A stretch of 64,000 nucleotides of DNA from assembly GCA_963828195.1 (NCBI GenBank), contig CAWHDT010000008.1, positions 136,844 to 200,843 of the forward strand, read 5' to 3'. Under the pieces are notes generated by a model. That model searched no databases. It was not told where the DNA came from and saw only the letters and a program-made list of their open reading frames with translations. Made by a program: the position numbers and the translations under genes. This document shows, piece after piece, positions 21,698 through 27,234 of the stretch (its first letter is position 1; each line of letters opens with the position of its first letter). Origin of the DNA: Candidatus Bathyarchaeota archaeon (lineage in GTDB: Archaea > Thermoproteota > Bathyarchaeia > Bathyarchaeales > Bathycorpusculaceae).

Positions 21698-23195
21698 TTA
21701 GATAGTTTGGTTCCAACAGTAAACGTGCTGATATTGTCCTGCCGTTGGGTAGGCTGGGTCATCGTAGACTATATCAAGCTTTGAGCCGTATTTAGCAAGG
21801 GGCTGCTTGTAGAGAAGTCCAGACTTGCGCTGAATTATTATCGGCTGGCCATATCCCCCAGATGTTGTCTCCTAGGTTTCTCATTCCCCAGCCATAGTCA
21901 TTAGGTAAAACTAATGCATCTTGCGCTTTCACATTATTAGTTTCTTTAGGATTTTCAACTACATCTGACCAGAACTTTTGGATTGCTGCGAATTGTTGGT
22001 CCTGCAAAAGGCCGCTCGCACTGCTGGCAACAGTACCATTCAGAGAAGTGCCAGACGTTTGCCCTGCGTAGTTAAAGACAACTACGTATTCTGCCCCACT
22101 TTCATACGATTGGCGCATTGCATCATACATTTGGTCGCCGCTCTGCAAGTAAGGCGTTGTCTCACTTGCCCAGGTTATCATTGTCCCCCAGCTTTTGCCT
22201 TGCATATCTGCAGCGCCCCTGACCAATGCGATATCCTGCGTGACTGATTGGTTCCAGCCAAGCTGCCCTAACACAACGTCATAGCCACCCAGATAATCAT
22301 ACCAGTCGAGAGCGTAGTCTGATGTAAAAAGCCTTACGTTTGTTTGATTGCCGATTGAGCTTAAGATATTCTGCTGCGTGCTAACGTAGTCGTTTGCGGC
22401 CTCGGTGTACGCTTGAAGCGGACGTGAATCCCAAAGTTGCTGGTAGGGTTCGAACTGGGAAATGTTGCCTTCGTCAGTCACTGCTGTGCCGTTTTCGTTT
22501 TGAACCATGCCGTTTGGCTGATACCACAGCGTTTCCATGTTTTCTCCAGTGCTTAACCCCCAGTCCATGGTTGACAGCAAAATCGTGCCGTTCGTTAAGT
22601 AAGTGGTAGTATTGGATTCTGATGAGGAATCTGGGAAAGACTGGCTATTGGAAACAATGATTTCTCCTGAAGTGAAAAATTCGATTTCTGTATTTTCAAC
22701 GTTGTTTAGTGATTCGTATATTGTTCCATCTTCACTCCTGTCGATTGATGCGCCTGTCGTGTTATCGTAAAGGTTTACGCTGGTGTCTATCATTTTTCCG
22801 CCCGGTTCATCGTTGTAGTATAATCCTAGGAAATGGTTGCCCCAGCGAGCTTGAGCAATACTCAAGAAAGAGTCACAGGTGTTTGCCGCATCGCCATTGT
22901 GGGCGTAATAAACTATGATGTTTAACCCTGAGTTGACGGTATAATCGCATATTTGCTCCATAGCCGTGAGGTTGCTCATGAGCGGTCCAGATTGCACAAC
23001 AAACAAGTTAGTGTAACTCTTTACTTTGTCGATAAGTTGCTCTGCCTCGGTGACTGAGCTGCCGCAGTATGTGACGCCGATGTAAAAGGGCTTCTTAGCT
23101 GCAACTTGAACAGAGTTCTCTAATGCCACAAAAGCCGATAAAAGAATAACTACGGCGACTGCCAGTGCCAAAGCTATTATCATACGTTTTTTCAT
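21698..23195 (-). CDS. Secreted/membrane-anchored hypothetical protein (frameshift near the 3' end)
   Basis: 467-aa ORF; removing one base from the G4 run at 21799-21802 extends it with ALAKYGSKLDIVYDDPAYP...WNQTI* to 21698. Confidence 0.7.
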
Positions 23196-23377: not shown

Positions 23378-23385
23378 TCCAAAAT
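23378..23385 (+). repeat. Target-site duplication TCCAAAAT (left copy)
   Basis: Identical 8-mer at 27227-27234. Confidence 0.93.
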
Positions 23386-23405
23386 GGTTCTGTGAAGTCT
23401 TCGTC
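23386..23405 (+). repeat. Left terminal inverted repeat GGTTCTGTGAAGTCTTCGTC
   Basis: Exact reverse complement at 27207-27226; begins GGTTCTGT like IS6-family ends (e.g. IS257). Confidence 0.95.
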
Positions 23406-23467
23406 TAGAATGGGGTTCATGTGAAAAACCGTCTGTTTTTACCTTTTTTCTCTTAGGGTATGTAACC

Positions 23468-23650
23468 ATGAGTTATGAAAAACGGGTTAAGCGTCCTAAG
23501 CATGGAACTTTTAGATGGCGCAAAGGCGGTAAGCAGTGGATTGGCGGAAACCAATTTGTCAACGCAGAAAACGAATACGAAAAGAAAACTTCACTCGGCT
23601 CAACATACAGTTCTGAAAACGTCGAACAATATTTTAAAAACAAGAAATAA
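23468..23650 (+). CDS. Small basic hypothetical protein (transposon cargo)
   Basis: 60-aa ATG ORF just inside the left TIR. Confidence 0.45.
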   Translation: MSYEKRVKRPKHGTFRWRKGGKQWIGGNQFVNAENEYEKKTSLGSTYSSENVEQYFKNKK

Positions 23651-23678
23651 GACGCCGCTAAGCTAGTATCTTCTTTTT

Positions 23679-24599
23679 TTATTTTCTTGGAAAAATCTGT
23701 GTAAACTGATTTTGCCTAACCTCATAGACCGACAAAAACACTTTCCCACTTTCGCCAAAACTTTTGTTATCTTTAAGATATTGACCAAACCGCTCTAATT
23801 TTCCACTGATAGTTTTTAACTGACCGCTCTTTGCATCAATTTCTTTAGACTTTTCAATATACTCAAAGTTTTCGTCAGTTAACTTATCTGACGTAACAAA
23901 ATACGACTTTTCCAGTGAACAATCGTTAGCTAAGAATATTTGCCTTGAGTTTTGAATCCATTTTGCAACATCTTCTTTCTTAGCGTGCCTATCTTTACAT
24001 TCAGCTATAACTATTGGTTTATCTTCAGCGTCAAAACCTACAACGTCTATTTCGCCTATTTCTGGAAATTTGTGACGAGTTGCAATTCGGGTTATTTTCA
24101 GTTTGGAATTGCGCATGATGAAATTAGCCGTTCTAAATTCAAGGAATACCCCTTTTCCATCAGACTCTTTTTTTATGAAAATGCGGTTTATCTTTTCGAG
24201 CAAATTATCAGTCATTTTGTCGTAAAAATCAGAGCCTCTTCCGTTTGGAGTAGGCTCTTTTAATTTGTTGGCTAATTCGTTTAAAACTGAAGAGTCGATT
24301 TTTTCTCCATGAGTTAATTCTCGAATAGTCGCCATTTTATCGAAAGTCAGCTTTGTTGTTTCTTTAGAGTTAATTTTTATGCCTTTTTCTTTGATGGTTT
24401 CATGAATTATTGTTCTTTTGGTTTCTTTTTCGTAAACTTCAGCGGTGTACTCTTTAATTTTTTCTAAAGTTAACAGTCCGTCTAGATATTTTACGAGGTC
24501 ACGTTTGCCATAGGTTTTGGGTACGGTAAGGTTTTCGGCTTTTGCAATTTGCTTAAGGTCTTTTTCATCCAGTTTTGACAATAGCTCGGTTTTAGTCAT
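23679..24599 (-). CDS. PD-(D/E)XK restriction-endonuclease-like protein (Mrr-like; cargo)
   Basis: FLE...EIDVVG...IAECK catalytic pattern; small helical N-terminal domain. Confidence 0.7.
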   Translation of the reverse strand: MTKTELLSKLDEKDLKQIAKAENLTVPKTYGKRDLVKYLDGLLTLEKIKEYTAEVYEKETKRTIIHETIKEKGIKINSKETTKLTFDKMATIRELTHGEKIDSSVLNELANKLKEPTPNGRGSDFYDKMTDNLLEKINRIFIKKESDGKGVFLEFRTANFIMRNSKLKITRIATRHKFPEIGEIDVVGFDAEDKPIVIAECKDRHAKKEDVAKWIQNSRQIFLANDCSLEKSYFVTSDKLTDENFEYIEKSKEIDAKSGQLKTISGKLERFGQYLKDNKSFGESGKVFLSVYEVRQNQFTQIFPRK

Positions 24600-24634
24600 G
24601 CCTCTCCATTATTTGCAGAGGTTGTATAAATCAT

Positions 24635-25762
24635 TTAACTCTTTTTTACCGACGCATTTTGAATTAGGGTTAGCCACTTGTTTTTTCCCTCAACCGTGTT
24701 TCCGCAAGCGTCAGCGGGAGTTTTACCGCCTAACGCTTCGTGTGGTCTAACATAGTTGTGGTAAATCTGGTAGCCGTCTATGATGTCGCTGTCAGTGATT
24801 TTTAGTCCTCTCATGGTTTTTTCTCTGTCTCGGATTTCGCCGTTCATTCTTTCCATTTTGTTGTTGTGTCTCAGTTCACCTTTCCCTGTCAACGTGATTT
24901 CGTGTATGTGGTTAGTGCGTGGGTAGATTTCCATGCTTGCGTCAGAGTAAGATGCTAAGCCGTCTGTTATGAGTGTTTCAGGCTTTTTACCCATAAGGTA
25001 GCTTGCTCTTGAAAAGAGCCTTGTTGCGTCATGTCTGTCTTTTGTGTCAGCGACTTCTTGCGCTATCCAGAAGCGTGTTTCATCATCCATCATGGAGAAT
25101 ATGTACTTCATATTTCCTGAAAATTTGACGTAAATTTCGTCTGCACGCCATGTGTCGCTTACGTTGGGTGTGATTTTTTCAGCGTAATCTTTCATTAGGG
25201 CTATGTATTTTCTTATCCAGTTTAGGATTGTTCGGTAAGACACTTTGACACCCATCAGTTCTAGGGCTTTCATTGTGTTTCTGAGGCTTTCTCCGCTGAA
25301 GTATAGCTGAAGGCTTGTTGTGATTGCTTGCGGGTTGTGCTTCATTTTTTCAAAGCCTATGTTGAATGTGAAGTATTTGTGGCAGTCTCGGCAGAGATAC
25401 TTTTGGATTGTTACGGCTTTGTTTCTGCGTTTTCCAGCCTTCATTAGGTTGTGTGATCCGCAAAAGATGCATTCGCTTAGGTTCTCTATTGGCGCTATGG
25501 TTCTTACTTTTACTTCTGCTCTGAGCGTTAGTGAGAAGTTTACTGCGTGGATGTGTTTGCATTCTACATGTCGGTAAGTGTTATCAGGGCATTGGCAAAC
25601 CCATTCATTATCAACCTTTGTCACTGCGTAGTCACCGTTTCCCGACTGAGATTTTACGGTGTATAGGTAGTCGTCTATTCGGCTTACTTGATTGGCTGTT
25701 TGGGCTATTGCTTTGCCTTTTGTTTCTCTGAGGTTTTCGGTCATCATTGTACTTACCTTCAA
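24635..25762 (-). CDS. IS6-like DDE transposase with N-terminal SWIM and Zn-ribbon domains
   Basis: SWIM CQCPD...CKH; CIFC...CRDC; catalytic WRADE, ITDG and NNKMER; C-terminal YNYVRPH-like YHNYVRPHEALGGKTPA. Confidence 0.92.
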   Translation of the reverse strand: MKVSTMMTENLRETKGKAIAQTANQVSRIDDYLYTVKSQSGNGDYAVTKVDNEWVCQCPDNTYRHVECKHIHAVNFSLTLRAEVKVRTIAPIENLSECIFCGSHNLMKAGKRRNKAVTIQKYLCRDCHKYFTFNIGFEKMKHNPQAITTSLQLYFSGESLRNTMKALELMGVKVSYRTILNWIRKYIALMKDYAEKITPNVSDTWRADEIYVKFSGNMKYIFSMMDDETRFWIAQEVADTKDRHDATRLFSRASYLMGKKPETLITDGLASYSDASMEIYPRTNHIHEITLTGKGELRHNNKMERMNGEIRDREKTMRGLKITDSDIIDGYQIYHNYVRPHEALGGKTPADACGNTVEGKNKWLTLIQNASVKKS

Positions 25763-25869
25763 TCTTACCTATTTTACCTATAGGCTTACCCCGCTTATAA
25801 ATATTTAGGTAACGCAATAGGTAAGATTAATATAACCGTTTAACCATGAGCATACCTGATAAGAGGTAA
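25753..25869. promoter_or_regulatory. Bidirectional promoter/operator between the transposase and the AbrB-like gene
   Basis: 13-bp inverted repeat AATCTTACCTATT (25761-25773) / AATAGGTAAGATT (25816-25828), several TTACC/GGTAA boxes and a central TTATAAATA. Confidence 0.7.
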
Positions 25870-25874
25870 ATTAA

Positions 25875-26051
25875 ATGGGAGAAATAACATATCTGAACAA
25901 AGCCACAAACAAAGGCGAATCACTCAGAACAACCGTGCCAATGAGTGTAGTTAAACAGTTTGGGCTAACCGACGAGGATAAACTAGATTGGCAAATTAAA
26001 GCAGAAGGTAGCGAACTAATAATCCAAATAAAAATAATCAAGAACAAATAG
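25875..26051 (+). CDS. AbrB/MazE-type DNA-binding protein (58 aa; not in the ORF track)
   Basis: MGEITYLNKATNKGESLRTTVPMSVVKQFGLTDEDKLDWQIKAEGSELIIQIKIIKNK*, a swapped-hairpin pattern; GAGGT upstream. Confidence 0.8.
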   Translation: MGEITYLNKATNKGESLRTTVPMSVVKQFGLTDEDKLDWQIKAEGSELIIQIKIIKNK

Positions 26052-26265
26052 AAAAAGCAACCCAAAGCTACCGAGATTTAGAGGGATAACGAATAGAGTT
26101 AACCCATACACCCAATCCAAACGATACAAGCATTAAGTCGGCAGTTCCGACATATTTTATACATTGGGGAAAAAACATCGCTGAAAAGAGTATGGTAATT
26201 AAGCCCACTACAACGGTTGCTATTACAAAGTTTTCAGTTTTCATAGTTAATCAATAGAAAAAGGA

Positions 26266-26652
26266 TTGATTAGTGTGACTCTACTTGTTGACGTTTTTTC
26301 GGTGTTCGATATAATTTTGATTGCCATTATGCTTTCAGGTTCAATAGTCAAAATGGGTACTAGACATGGAACGATAAGAGGCGATACTCATTTCAAAGGT
26401 TTTTACTTACTTTTCTTCGCATTCATATTAGAAAACGTCGCAATTACAGTGTTCGCAAACTACGTGTTTTTGCCATTTCTTGAGCAAATGTTACCAAACA
26501 GTTTCTTCAAAGTATTGGCACTAACGGGCACTTTGATATGTCTATGTAATATTTGGTTTGCTTCAACTTTTAGATTCAACCAACGAATAGAAGTAATTGT
26601 TTTGACTGTAGCAATGGCGGTAATAACATTTTTGCTCTTTATTTACACCTGA
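26266..26652 (+). CDS. Membrane protein with about 4 TM helices (cargo)
   Basis: 128-aa hydrophobic ORF. Confidence 0.6.
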   Translation: MISVTLLVDVFSVFDIILIAIMLSGSIVKMGTRHGTIRGDTHFKGFYLLFFAFILENVAITVFANYVFLPFLEQMLPNSFFKVLALTGTLICLCNIWFASTFRFNQRIEVIVLTVAMAVITFLLFIYT

Positions 26653-26679
26653 CCTAAACTGACCTAAATAAAAAAAGGA

Positions 26680-26700
26680 AAGTCGGTTTGTTACCGACTT
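26680..26700 (+). terminator. Hairpin AAGTCGGT-N5-ACCGACTT (terminator or operator)
   Basis: Perfect 8-bp stem after the membrane gene; preceded by the tandem repeat CTGACCTAAA x2 (26649-26668). Confidence 0.35.
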
Positions 26701-26788
26701 GAACGTACTTTTCTAATTGCAAGTTTAGCTCTTACATGGGTTAGGTGTTGATGCCTCAAGCAATTAACCTCAAAAGAAAAAAACTATA

Positions 26789-27208
26789 TTGACAGCGAAA
26801 CAACAAGCTATTATGAAAAAATATAAGCCAAGCATAGACATCCCAAAACTTGCGAGAAAATACGGGACTCTCAAACCTTCGGAACTTTCAAGGGCAATAT
26901 TGCAAGACAAGGGAATTAGGAAAAGCCAACCCTCTATCTATGCATGGCTTCATAATCACCCTAACGAGCGTAACAAGTTAAGCATTGAAATCAAAAATGC
27001 CTCTCCCAGAAAAAAACTCCATGAAATACCTATACCCTATGCCAAACTAACAAGTCAATATTTTGGTTCAATGGAAATAATCAATTTAGAAACGATTGAA
27101 AAAGCAAGAGAAGAACTCAAAGTAATTGAAGAACAGTTTTGGCATGAAATTTGGGAAAAGACAGGAGAAGAGTTCGCTAGACGATTTTTCACAGAGAAAA
27201 CCACCTGA
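26789..27208 (+). CDS. Hypothetical protein with possible HTH (cargo); stop codon overlaps the right TIR
   Basis: PSELSRAILQDKGIRKSQPSIYAWL resembles an HTH; TGA at 27206-27208. Confidence 0.55.
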   Translation: MTAKQQAIMKKYKPSIDIPKLARKYGTLKPSELSRAILQDKGIRKSQPSIYAWLHNHPNERNKLSIEIKNASPRKKLHEIPIPYAKLTSQYFGSMEIINLETIEKAREELKVIEEQFWHEIWEKTGEEFARRFFTEKTT

Positions 27209-27226
27209 CGAAGACTTCACAGAACC
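27207..27226 (-). repeat. Right terminal inverted repeat
   Basis: GACGAAGACTTCACAGAACC is the reverse complement of the left TIR. Confidence 0.95.
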
Positions 27227-27234
27227 TCCAAAAT
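27227..27234 (+). repeat. Target-site duplication TCCAAAAT (right copy)
   Basis: Identical to 23378-23385. Confidence 0.93.

Follow-up and report, generated by a model that had tools for sequence, protein, structure and literature searches.

A probable IS6-like unit transposon with passenger genes in a Bathyarchaeota genome, and its relatives among the archaea

Introduction

Insertion sequences (ISs) of the IS6 family are compact single-gene elements, 0.7–0.9 kb long and at most ~1.7 kb, and cointegrate formation is the one mode of movement ascribed to them. In the accessible part of the family survey, ISDsp3 is the single IS6 member with a passenger gene, and zinc (Zn)-finger extensions are placed in clades h and i (Varani 2021). 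The available portion of a second analysis reports extra N-terminal domains in ten clostridial entries only (Harmer and Hall 2019). Here we describe an element in a 64,000-nucleotide stretch of DNA from a Candidatus Bathyarchaeota archaeon (assembly GCA_963828195.1, contig CAWHDT010000008.1, positions 136,844–200,843 of the forward strand), which is called the window and within which positions are counted from the first letter. The element occupies positions 23386–27226, is 3841 bp long and contains five or six open reading frames (ORFs) besides that of its transposase. It is very probably an intact and autonomous unit transposon with passengers, one of a large branch of the IS6 superfamily in archaea.

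The closest described relatives by sequence form the ISCpe7 group (clade h in the accessible part of Varani 2021 and clade VII in that of Harmer and Hall 2019), which gives the best match to the catalytic part of the enzyme. As in the archaeal family described below, Cys-rich Zn-binding N-terminal extensions stand ahead of the helix-turn-helix (HTH) and DDE regions, the target duplication is 8 bp long, and the DDE residues and the basic residue align. The ISCpe7 elements differ in having a length of 1.2–1.3 kb and one gene, so far as the sources describe them, against 2.15–9.2 kb with a regulator and passengers in the archaeal family, and the first Zn module of the latter is a SWIM finger (CxC...CxH) and not a second CxxC ribbon. 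The hosts of this family are archaea, and its ends start with GGTTCTGT, whereas one long clostridial IS alone starts with GG according to the available text (Harmer and Hall 2019). ISDsp3 of Dehalococcoides, compared here by description, also carries a passenger gene in the accessible account of Varani 2021, but it is described in the available text as a single copy of 1456 bp with one hypothetical passenger and no intact Zn finger (Harmer and Hall 2019), and not as a diversified family with variable multi-gene cargo.

The better known IS26, IS257 and IS6100 share with the archaeal elements the DDE-K/R core, the GG...CTGT end motif with G at position 7 and the 8-bp duplication, but they are 0.8 kb long, have a single gene and are 24–28% identical, and their cargo sits between two directly repeated IS copies (pseudo-compound transposons). 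The Tn3 family offers another likeness, with one pair of inverted ends, one transposase and variable passengers inside; its transposition is replicative, through a cointegrate, and some members have toxin-antitoxin-like small genes beside the transposase. Tn3 elements differ in their unrelated TnpA of ~1000 aa, 38-bp ends, 5-bp duplication and dedicated resolvase, and their target immunity is the opposite of the tip-adjacent clustering seen in the archaeal family. No Tn3 transposase or resolvase family was among the matches of any ORF, and the duplication of our element is 8 bp and not 5.

Among archaea, the IS-like transposons of thaumarchaea have one or two genes, and passenger-gene transposons were undetected as of the survey, in its accessible part (Krupovic 2019). 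Five IS-like transposons, with no family names in the available text, were reported from the Atabeyarchaeia (Valentin-Alvarado 2024). The aloposons were considered and set aside as a different kind of element, since the accessible description has them integrate at tRNA genes and carry giant genes (Wu 2022). In the literature we found no description of IS6 elements with passengers in archaea, of IS6 combined with a SWIM domain, of cargo genes of an archaeal DDE transposase, or of a Bathyarchaeia transposon with restriction-modification genes.

Ends and Transposase of the Element

A first-pass annotation of the window had proposed perfect 20-bp terminal inverted repeats and an exact 8-bp duplication, and sequence reading and a repeat finder bear out both. 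The arms at 23386–23405 and 27207–27226 are 20 nt each, 100% complementary and 3801 nt apart; the arm sequence is GGTTCTGTGAAGTCTTCGTC, with the GG start, the G at position 7 and the cTGTt motif of IS6-type ends. Directly outside them lies the target-site duplication TCCAAAAT, the left copy at 23378–23385 and the right copy at 27227–27234. With up to three mismatches allowed, the 20-mer occurs at just those two sites in the window, and shuffled windows gave a mean of 0.01 matches, with two or more in 0 of 100 shuffles. A second inverted pair of 15 nt (93%) lies inside the first, at 23420–23434 and 27179–27193, ~35 nt from each tip. Because this imperfect inner pair adjoins the perfect outer pair, the ends of the element are two-part, the terminal repeat on the 3' side of the transposase gene covering 23386–23434 (plus strand) and that on the 5' side 27179–27226 (minus strand). 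Neither the 20-mer search of the window nor a scan of the elements for relic ends revealed an end-like sequence inside the element. Its G+C content is 37.9%, compared with 43–44% for the genome. The left junction is bridged by contigs from four public soil runs (three studies) and the right junction by contigs from two of the same runs, with 0 differences at either; one of the runs may be the source sample. The insertion is therefore not an assembly artefact.

The only transposase ORF of the element (24635–25762, minus strand) encodes 375 aa from a TTG at 25762, and family alignments indicate that the true start may be an ATG 5–6 codons further in. It lies 1249 bp from one end of the element and 1464 bp from the other, in agreement with the first reading of a single central transposase over 1.2 kb from both ends. 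The protein consists, in this order, of a SWIM finger (C56, C58, C68, H70), a Zn ribbon (C98, C101, C124, C127), an HTH region and a DDE domain (D208, D267, E304, R311), and all of these Cys, His, DDE and Arg residues are invariant in 46 family members. In Pfam, DDE_Tnp_IS240 (PF13610) passes clearly with 65.8 bits (cut-off 27, E 5.6e-18), beside weaker rve matches. The SWIM assignment made at first reading stands in part: the CxC...CxH pattern is invariant in the 46 sequences and a paralogous transposase exceeds the Pfam threshold with 23.1 bits, but the match of this copy is sub-threshold (14 bits, E 0.036). The AlphaFold model of the protein is poor (mean predicted local distance difference test score, pLDDT, 60.4; predicted template modelling score, pTM, 0.30), with the SWIM region (residues 10–80) alone confident, and a search of the PDB sequences gave no match. 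A 461-aa transposase in a sister element of 6 kb in the same genome (L020:4047–5432; G000 C5) has a C-terminal extension of ~85 aa that is absent from the other copies.

The catalytic domain relates the enzyme to IS6. Among nine NCBIfam families the IS6 model scores highest, with 108 bits (E 5.4e-31), below its cut-off of 125, and the IS481 and IS1 models follow with ~52 bits each. Against 72,556 plasmids, IS6-family genes were the only matches, at 24–30% identity over residues 127–364; the best of them was ISCpe7 of Clostridium perfringens, with 29.8% identity over residues 132–364. D208, D267 and E304 align with the catalytic residues of ISCpe7 and IS257, and R311 stands seven residues past the Glu, where IS6 enzymes have K/R. 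The enzyme is only a distant relative, probably an outlying member of the IS6 superfamily. With one transposase, one pair of ends, no internal ends and the DDE_Tnp_IS240 match, the element agrees with the earlier description of a non-composite unit transposon built on an IS6-like enzyme.

A Family of Cargo-Carrying Elements

Related elements were delimited by family-type ends on both sides of a transposase gene together with a perfect 8-bp direct duplication. Positions 1–2 and 5–7 of the ends were fixed by the search pattern, so that the 100% conservation there is by construction. The host genome (2.83 Mb in 9 contigs, G+C 43–45% per contig) contains seven full-length transposase genes with 59–100% identity, plus fragments, and six of the seven have ends of the GGTTCTGT type and perfect 8-bp duplications. 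Besides the 3841-bp element with its duplication TCCAAAAT, these are elements of 6051 bp (C5, TGTTTTTT), 4109 bp (C4, TAATAAAG), 5375 bp (C3, CATTTTGG) and two of 2434 bp (C1, CTCTCTCT; C6, TCGAACAG). The seventh copy (C3:117396–118484) has no convincing ends within 20 kb on either side. The C1 and C6 elements are 100% identical, include a 271-aa passenger and are flanked by different duplications; whole elements, passengers included, have therefore been copied to new sites as units. This is the behaviour of a unit transposon, in which genes without a role in transposition lie inside the ends and the whole unit is duplicated.

Beyond the host genome, 11 of 14 close homologues from congeners yielded ends and duplication (2591–5985 bp), and none of six distant homologues (32–38% identity) did so. 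A scan of species-representative genomes gave 242 relatives, of which the best 80 loci were examined; 50 of these, in named archaeal genomes, have ends and a perfect duplication (2153–9197 bp). When the left flank of one locus was combined with the right flank of another, 0 of 80 passed in each of five permutations. After removal of four places that had been fetched twice, 62 non-redundant elements remained, no two of which share more than 1 kb at 90% identity or higher. Five of them lie elsewhere in the host genome and the others in congeners and in Nitrososphaeria, Methanomicrobia, Thermoplasmata and one Asgard genome, so that the family spans several archaeal phyla. The elements are 2153–9197 bp long, and each holds at least ~1 kb of non-transposase DNA, which agrees with the earlier suggestion of a family that shuttles variable cargo. 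In none of the 62 do the ends directly flank the transposase gene, which excludes that the long-range ends of our element are a one-off. Even in the three smallest elements (2153, 2169 and 2334 bp), where the transposase stop codon lies 7 nt from one end, there is ~1 kb upstream. The G+C content is lower inside than in the flanks in 55 of 56 testable cases, by a mean of 6.4 points.

The ends of the family have the consensus GGTTCTGTnAAGTCTnCG..G.T, followed at positions 34–39 by a subterminal tgt.aa, and this consensus may also be written as GGTTCTGTnAAGTCT; the two ends of one element agree at 64–100% per position over the first 24 nt. The variant GGTTCTGGTGC occurs in the transposase clade of L097, L062 and L065, and GGTTCTG(G/T)TAACT in that of L111, L022, L105, L120, L067 and L109. 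Because the end variants track the transposase clades, the ends belong to this transposase. The closest relative of our element, L076, has a transposase that is 85% identical (80% at the nucleotide level). The two have in common the block of AbrB gene and transposase (~1.43 kb), the last 69 nt and the ends, and nothing else; both cargo arms of the 3841-bp element are unrelated to those of L076. The conserved core of the family thus consists of the ends, the transposase with its SWIM finger, Zn ribbon and IS6-type DDE domain, and a divergent small gene of AbrB or ribbon-helix-helix type.

One element stands apart from those delimited. The 3035-bp element at L128:4737–7788 has strong ends (22/25), and its flanking 8-mers, CGATTAAA and TTTAATCG, are reverse complements and not direct repeats. 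Each of its tips has another family end 8 bp away on the outside. A rearrangement between neighbouring copies could have produced this arrangement.

Regulator Gene and Intergenic Palindrome

The second gene of the conserved core (25875–26051, plus strand) is divergent from the transposase gene and encodes a small putative DNA-binding protein of 58 aa, similar to AbrB/SpoVT. Its Pfam match to MazE_antitoxin (3.9e-4, 20.8 bits) is below the cut-off of 24.7, and its profile gives weak matches in the PDB to AbrB-family regulators (E 0.19–0.9); S16, L17, R18, T20, P22 and W39 are invariant among its homologues. A small ORF that starts at most 420 nt upstream of the transposase on the opposite strand is present in 61 of the 62 elements, and three clusters of homologous regulators cover 50 of them. 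The first cluster is AbrB-like, as in our element (24 elements; 26 by a first jackhmmer pass). The second, in 17 elements, is of the ribbon-helix-helix type, its profile matching the omega repressor, 56B and CopG in the PDB (E 1e-4 to 6e-4), and the third, in nine elements, is a second MazE/AbrB type that passes Pfam (37.8 bits). Among the 12 elements outside these clusters, some ORFs look ribbon-helix-helix, AbrB-like or Zn-ribbon by their sequences.

Between the two divergent genes, the repeat finder located an operator-like palindrome (25761–25828) with perfect arms of 13 nt, AATCTTACCTATT at 25761–25773 and AATAGGTAAGATT at 25816–25828; further TACCT repeats accompany the arms, which enclose an A+T-rich, TATA-like stretch. 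Of 21 elements that share this regulator type, 14 have the TACC/GGTA motif in their best intergenic inverted repeat, and in 11 that repeat exceeds all 30 shuffles. The divergent small gene in 50 of 62 elements and the TACCT/AGGTA motif that recurs among them speak for the earlier proposal that the transposon has its own regulator. In the mechanism that we propose, the AbrB-like protein would bind the TACCT/AGGTA palindromes between the divergent promoters and would thereby repress its own gene and the transposase gene.

Passenger Genes and Cargo

The passengers of our element lie on both sides of the core. The first candidate gene, a putative passenger, is a 60-aa basic ORF with a pI of 10.0 (23468–23650, plus strand), which is the small basic protein of the first reading; it has no Pfam family, a single weak and spurious NCBIfam match and no homologue in the other 61 elements. 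The second passenger (23679–24599, minus strand) encodes a 306-aa protein with two N-terminal helical modules and a C-terminal domain that resembles PD-(D/E)XK nucleases. Its Pfam matches, to DUF234 and HSDR_N_2, are weak, and only 32 homologues were found; D185, E200 and K202, which form a D...ExK motif, are invariant in 23 homologues. In an AlphaFold2 (AF2) model (pLDDT 81.7), the C-terminal domain has its best fold match in NucS/EndoMS (2vld; E 1e-3, probability 1.00, 110 columns), followed by the nuclease domains of Card1/Can2 and then by restriction enzymes. The invariant residues and these folds support the nuclease assignment that had been made from the sequence.

To the right of the core, a 58-aa ORF with one hydrophobic segment (26068–26244, minus strand) is an uncertain gene that was absent from the first list. 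It is followed by a 128-aa passenger (26266–26652, plus strand) with no family in Pfam or NCBIfam; its four hydrophobic segments by Kyte-Doolittle hydropathy (residues 1–32, 45–72, 80–102 and 106–128) fit the four transmembrane segments predicted earlier. The last passenger (26789–27208, plus strand) encodes a basic protein of 139 aa, with a stop codon that extends over the first bases of the inverted repeat. It had been called HTH-like, a description that found no support in Pfam, NCBIfam or the Atlas look-up. Neither Pfam nor NCBIfam gives it a family, its Atlas leads are all below 0.85, and none of the other 61 elements has a homologue. For the 306-aa and 139-aa passengers together, the look-up gave leads below 0.9 only (NERD on 22% of one cluster). 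No passenger of this copy was met again, either in another element or in a syntenic region of the congeners.

The same diversity extends to the family, in which nearly every element has its own passengers, on one side of the core or on both. The search of archaeal genomes proposed at first pass has yielded, with the 62 elements, a catalogue of 250 cargo ORFs (at least 60 aa), which fall into 194 clusters, 166 of them singletons. Iterative searches did not find a universal third core gene; the gene that follows the regulator, often coiled-coil, links at most eight of the 62 elements. In a domain scan of the 150 largest of 159 cargo ORFs of at least 100 aa, the Pfam families included N6_Mtase (11 members), Eco57I (9), Methylase_S (6), HSDR_N_2 (5), Proteasome (5), N6_N4_Mtase (4), MmeI_Mtase (3), NOV_C (2) and NYN (2), and BsaWI, Mrr_cat, ParE toxin, GNAT and TBP have one member each. 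Restriction-modification of types I, II and IIG likewise dominates the PADLOC results, and a type IIG model gives 1122 bits for the largest cargo protein. Restriction-modification systems are thus the commonest identifiable cargo. Of the elements in the host genome, the 5.4-kb one holds an N6 methylase fused to a nuclease, together with a specificity subunit and a NOV_C protein, and the 6-kb one a protein with borderline similarity to SocA/Panacea antitoxins (25.2 bits, cut-off 25.7). Genes of restriction-modification and of toxin-antitoxin systems thus lie inside the ends of relatives.

Three further observations concern the cargo. One cluster consists of five proteins (79–428 aa) in five elements, L087, L124, L129, L131 and L132. 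Five cargo proteins match the Proteasome-subunit family of Pfam (best E 1.8e-13), an odd passenger for a transposon, and we assume that they are the members of that five-protein cluster. A homologue of the TATA-binding protein (Pfam TBP, 1.3e-29) is present as cargo in one element.

Insertion Beside Resident Tips and Growth of the Cargo

The ends of neighbouring elements show a regular spacing. We scanned the host genome and the fetched loci (4.3 Mb) for tip-to-tip junctions with gaps of 0 to 40 bp and found 15 in which the gap is exactly 8 bp, while no other gap occurred more than once. Counted by element, 12 of the 62 have a neighbour at offset 8, and zero or one at ten other offsets tested. 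Where three tips stand in line (L132 and L082), the same 8-mer is repeated in each spacer. An 8-bp spacer pattern of this kind would result if elements repeatedly inserted into the 8 bp alongside a tip already present, and it suggests such insertion. IS26 is likewise drawn to resident copies, through a "targeted conservative" reaction that the available account describes, and this parallels the tip-adjacent insertions (Harmer and Hall 2019). The targeted insertion of IS26 leaves no duplication, whereas the spacer between neighbours in the archaeal family equals the duplication length.

Mini-elements and relic ends accompany this pattern. A transposase-less mini-element of 785 bp (G000 C3:74585–75369; L026:2586–3370), with family ends, a duplication of 7 of 8 positions and ORFs for an 87-aa Zn-ribbon protein and a 59-aa protein, lies exactly 8 bp from the tip of a degraded copy (transposase fragment at C3:74074–74175). 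Relic internal ends were found at nine sites in seven of the 62 elements, compared with two in shuffled interiors. In the Atabeyarchaeum element, a relic end lies 22 nt past the transposase, where the minimal elements stop. The 4.1-kb sister element (C4:105826–109934) has an inner end-like sequence at C4:108713–108727, 1.2 kb inside its outer end, which suggests that a neighbouring element became fused to it and contributed the distal 1.2 kb.

Cargo could accordingly be gained in three steps. A second element would insert alongside a resident tip, within the adjoining 8 bp, the tandem pair would then move from its outermost ends and so fuse the contents of both elements, and the inner ends and the spare transposase would decay after the fusion. 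Accretion by tandem fusion would explain why cargo stands on both sides of the core.

Distribution and Hosts

The family is abundant: a protein search with the transposase gave 5727 matches at E ≤ 1e-3, of which the top 120 are all 64–87% identical. At E ≤ 1e-20 the transposase is present in 17 of 36 other genomes of the genus; at E ≤ 1e-80, 30 of the 401 genomes sampled from the phylum have it, and these cluster in a few families. By their titles, the 80 named loci belong to Bathyarchaeia, Nitrososphaeria (including Nitrosotalea and Nitrosopumilus), Methanoperedens, Methanoregulaceae, Thermoplasmata and Atabeyarchaeum. A quick, unrooted maximum-likelihood tree of 59 transposases separates a mainly Bathyarchaeia clade from a clade of the other groups with a few Bathyarchaeia. 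Host labels are clustered on it (five changes needed, which is the minimum, with relatives not being independent samples), and some mixed pairs are well supported, for example Bathyarchaeia with Atabeyarchaeum at 99. As far as such a tree allows, this fits mostly within-lineage spread with occasional transfer. The five published Atabeyarchaeia transposons, whose description is accessible in part, may include the 6.2-kb L115 element delimited here (Valentin-Alvarado 2024).

Four contigs with labels of bacterial metagenome-assembled genomes (Limnocylindrales, Pirellulales) also hold family members (L079, L100, L101 and L111). These are probably mis-binned archaeal contigs and not cases of transfer to bacteria, because the two of them in the tree nest inside Bathyarchaeia clades. 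A further element of 2584 bp with the perfect duplication CTTGCCTA (L169:6555–9138) was found in a 55-kb contig of IMG/VR, where its neighbours are genes for an MCM helicase, an RFC-like clamp-loader ATPase, a reverse transcriptase and a protein with an Mtd domain. The last two look like a diversity-generating retroelement. This contig, whose viral nature is putative, may mark a vehicle between cells.

Alternative Readings, Mobility and Mechanism

The first alternative is that the family has already been catalogued, under IS6 or in the ISMhu11 subgroup of IS1, and that there is nothing new in it, which we consider possible but unlikely. IS1 elements have a Zn finger-HTH-DDE architecture, GGnnnTG ends and duplications of 8–9 bp, and the archaeal ISMhu11 subgroup is reported with sizes of up to ~4.6 kb, which would imply passengers. 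The ends of our element fit this IS1 consensus as well as that of IS6, and its 8-bp duplication suits both families. The NCBIfam model of the IS1/IS1595 N-terminal Zn domain just passes (29.2 bits, cut-off 28), and transpos_IS1, at 52 bits against a cut-off of 100, aligns near full length (residues 98–313 with profile positions 1–192 of 199). In addition, Methanomicrobiales genomes hold family members (L124, L138 and L140), one homologue is already named "IS6 family transposase" by NCBI, and L115 lies in one of the Atabeyarchaeia genomes from which five IS-like transposons are reported in the available text (Valentin-Alvarado 2024). Yet the IS6 model scores 56 bits above the IS1 model on this transposase (108 against 52), and there is no Pfam IS1 DDE match at E ≤ 0.1. 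The accessible literature also names ISDsp3 as the sole IS6 member with a passenger (Varani 2021), limits extra N-terminal domains to the ten clostridial entries (Harmer and Hall 2019) and leaves passenger transposons undetected in archaea (Krupovic 2019), and neither the architecture nor the term ISMhu11 was found in our literature search.

The second alternative, in which the element is a fixed, immobile relic whose passengers are ordinary chromosomal genes between old ends, is improbable. It draws on the absence of an empty site. A 7.2-kb query across the insertion, run against 60 congeners, never found the flanks adjacent, and the four soil runs, which were available as contigs only at a depth of ~2–6, gave the occupied form only, with no joints of an empty site or of a circle. 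Of the two flanks, congeners have the right one (from 27250) and, for the left one, paralogues of its gene. Because synteny is not kept there, the missing empty site is uninformative on the age of the insertion, and because of the low depth and the use of contigs only, the missing joints carry no weight against mobility. Against a relic stand the perfect 20-nt ends and duplication, the intact transposase frame with all its catalytic and Zn residues, the low G+C content relative to the genome, the sister element in two identical copies in the same genome, and the fact that none of this copy's passengers occurs in other elements or in congener syntenic regions. The check for an empty site or circular junctions that the first-pass annotation had proposed thus found neither. 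The insertion may be recent, as that annotation had suggested from the perfect ends; no empty-site allele was seen.

The surroundings of the insertion deserve a separate remark. The gene on its left (21792–23195, minus strand, 467 aa) belongs to a family that is multi-copy in the genus, with several nucleotide matches of 65–83% per genome in varying places, and the sequence on its right, from 27250 on, occurs as a single copy that most congeners have conserved. The insertion therefore lies at a synteny break.

That a small IS of ~1.6 kb, made of regulator and transposase, sits inside an unrelated non-autonomous element that owns the outer ends is highly improbable, since the outer ends are kept together with the transposase throughout the 62 elements, with variants that follow its clades, no end-like sequence lies inside the element or flanks the core, the last 69 nt are also common with the closest relative and the three smallest elements place the transposase stop 7 nt from the outer end, even though the block common with that relative is regulator and transposase alone (~1.43 kb), cargo stands on both sides of this core and transposase-less mini-elements with family ends exist (the 785-bp one described above).

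Several points weigh against the reading of 23386–27226 as an intact unit transposon of an IS6 branch. Membership of IS6 is not clean, as the NCBIfam score lies under the curated cut-off (108 against 125), and identity to bacterial IS6 enzymes is below 30% and covers residues 127–364 only. In the available part of their analysis, Harmer and Hall (2019) argue that the archaeal and the long clostridial entries should leave IS6/IS26. No transposition event, empty site or circular junction was seen for this copy. Ends were not found for 30 of the 80 and three of the 14 loci; many of these are short contigs, and some could be organised differently. In this copy the regulator stays below the threshold of its family, and the binding of the palindrome by it is a prediction. 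Relic ends, on which the accretion model draws, occur in seven of the 62 elements, and our element has none. Finally, each of the identical copies has its own direct duplication, and the cointegrate route is suggested by analogy.

For the unit transposon that we favour, movement may be pictured as follows. The transposase would bind both repeats of each end and cut the target with an 8-bp stagger, and the whole 3.8 kb would be inserted. By analogy with its IS26 relatives, whose behaviour is taken from the accessible parts of the literature, this could follow a replicative copy-in route to a cointegrate that host recombination would then resolve; no resolvase-like gene was among the family matches of the element ORFs or the cargo. 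The direct duplications around the C1 and C6 copies fit a resolved intermolecular cointegrate or a simple insertion, and not an unresolved intramolecular event.

Significance

In bacteria, passenger-carrying transposons drive the spread of accessory genes. We give about even chances to a broader claim for archaea: that these elements are the first recognised widespread family of archaeal unit transposons, a self-regulated IS6 branch with an interchangeable AbrB or ribbon-helix-helix repressor, which grows by tip-adjacent insertion and in this way gathers accessory genes, those of restriction-modification and toxin-antitoxin systems included, and ferries them among Bathyarchaeia, Nitrososphaeria, Methanomicrobia, Thermoplasmata and Asgard archaea, at times with viruses or other mobile elements as carriers. 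With such a family there would be a concrete carrier behind the patchy occurrence of restriction-modification and toxin-antitoxin systems among archaea of soils and wetlands, and some of the variability of defence islands would also be explained. It would provide a compact and possibly portable DNA-insertion system for archaea that are now without genetic tools, and tip-adjacent insertion would be a testable route from a simple insertion sequence to a cargo transposon.

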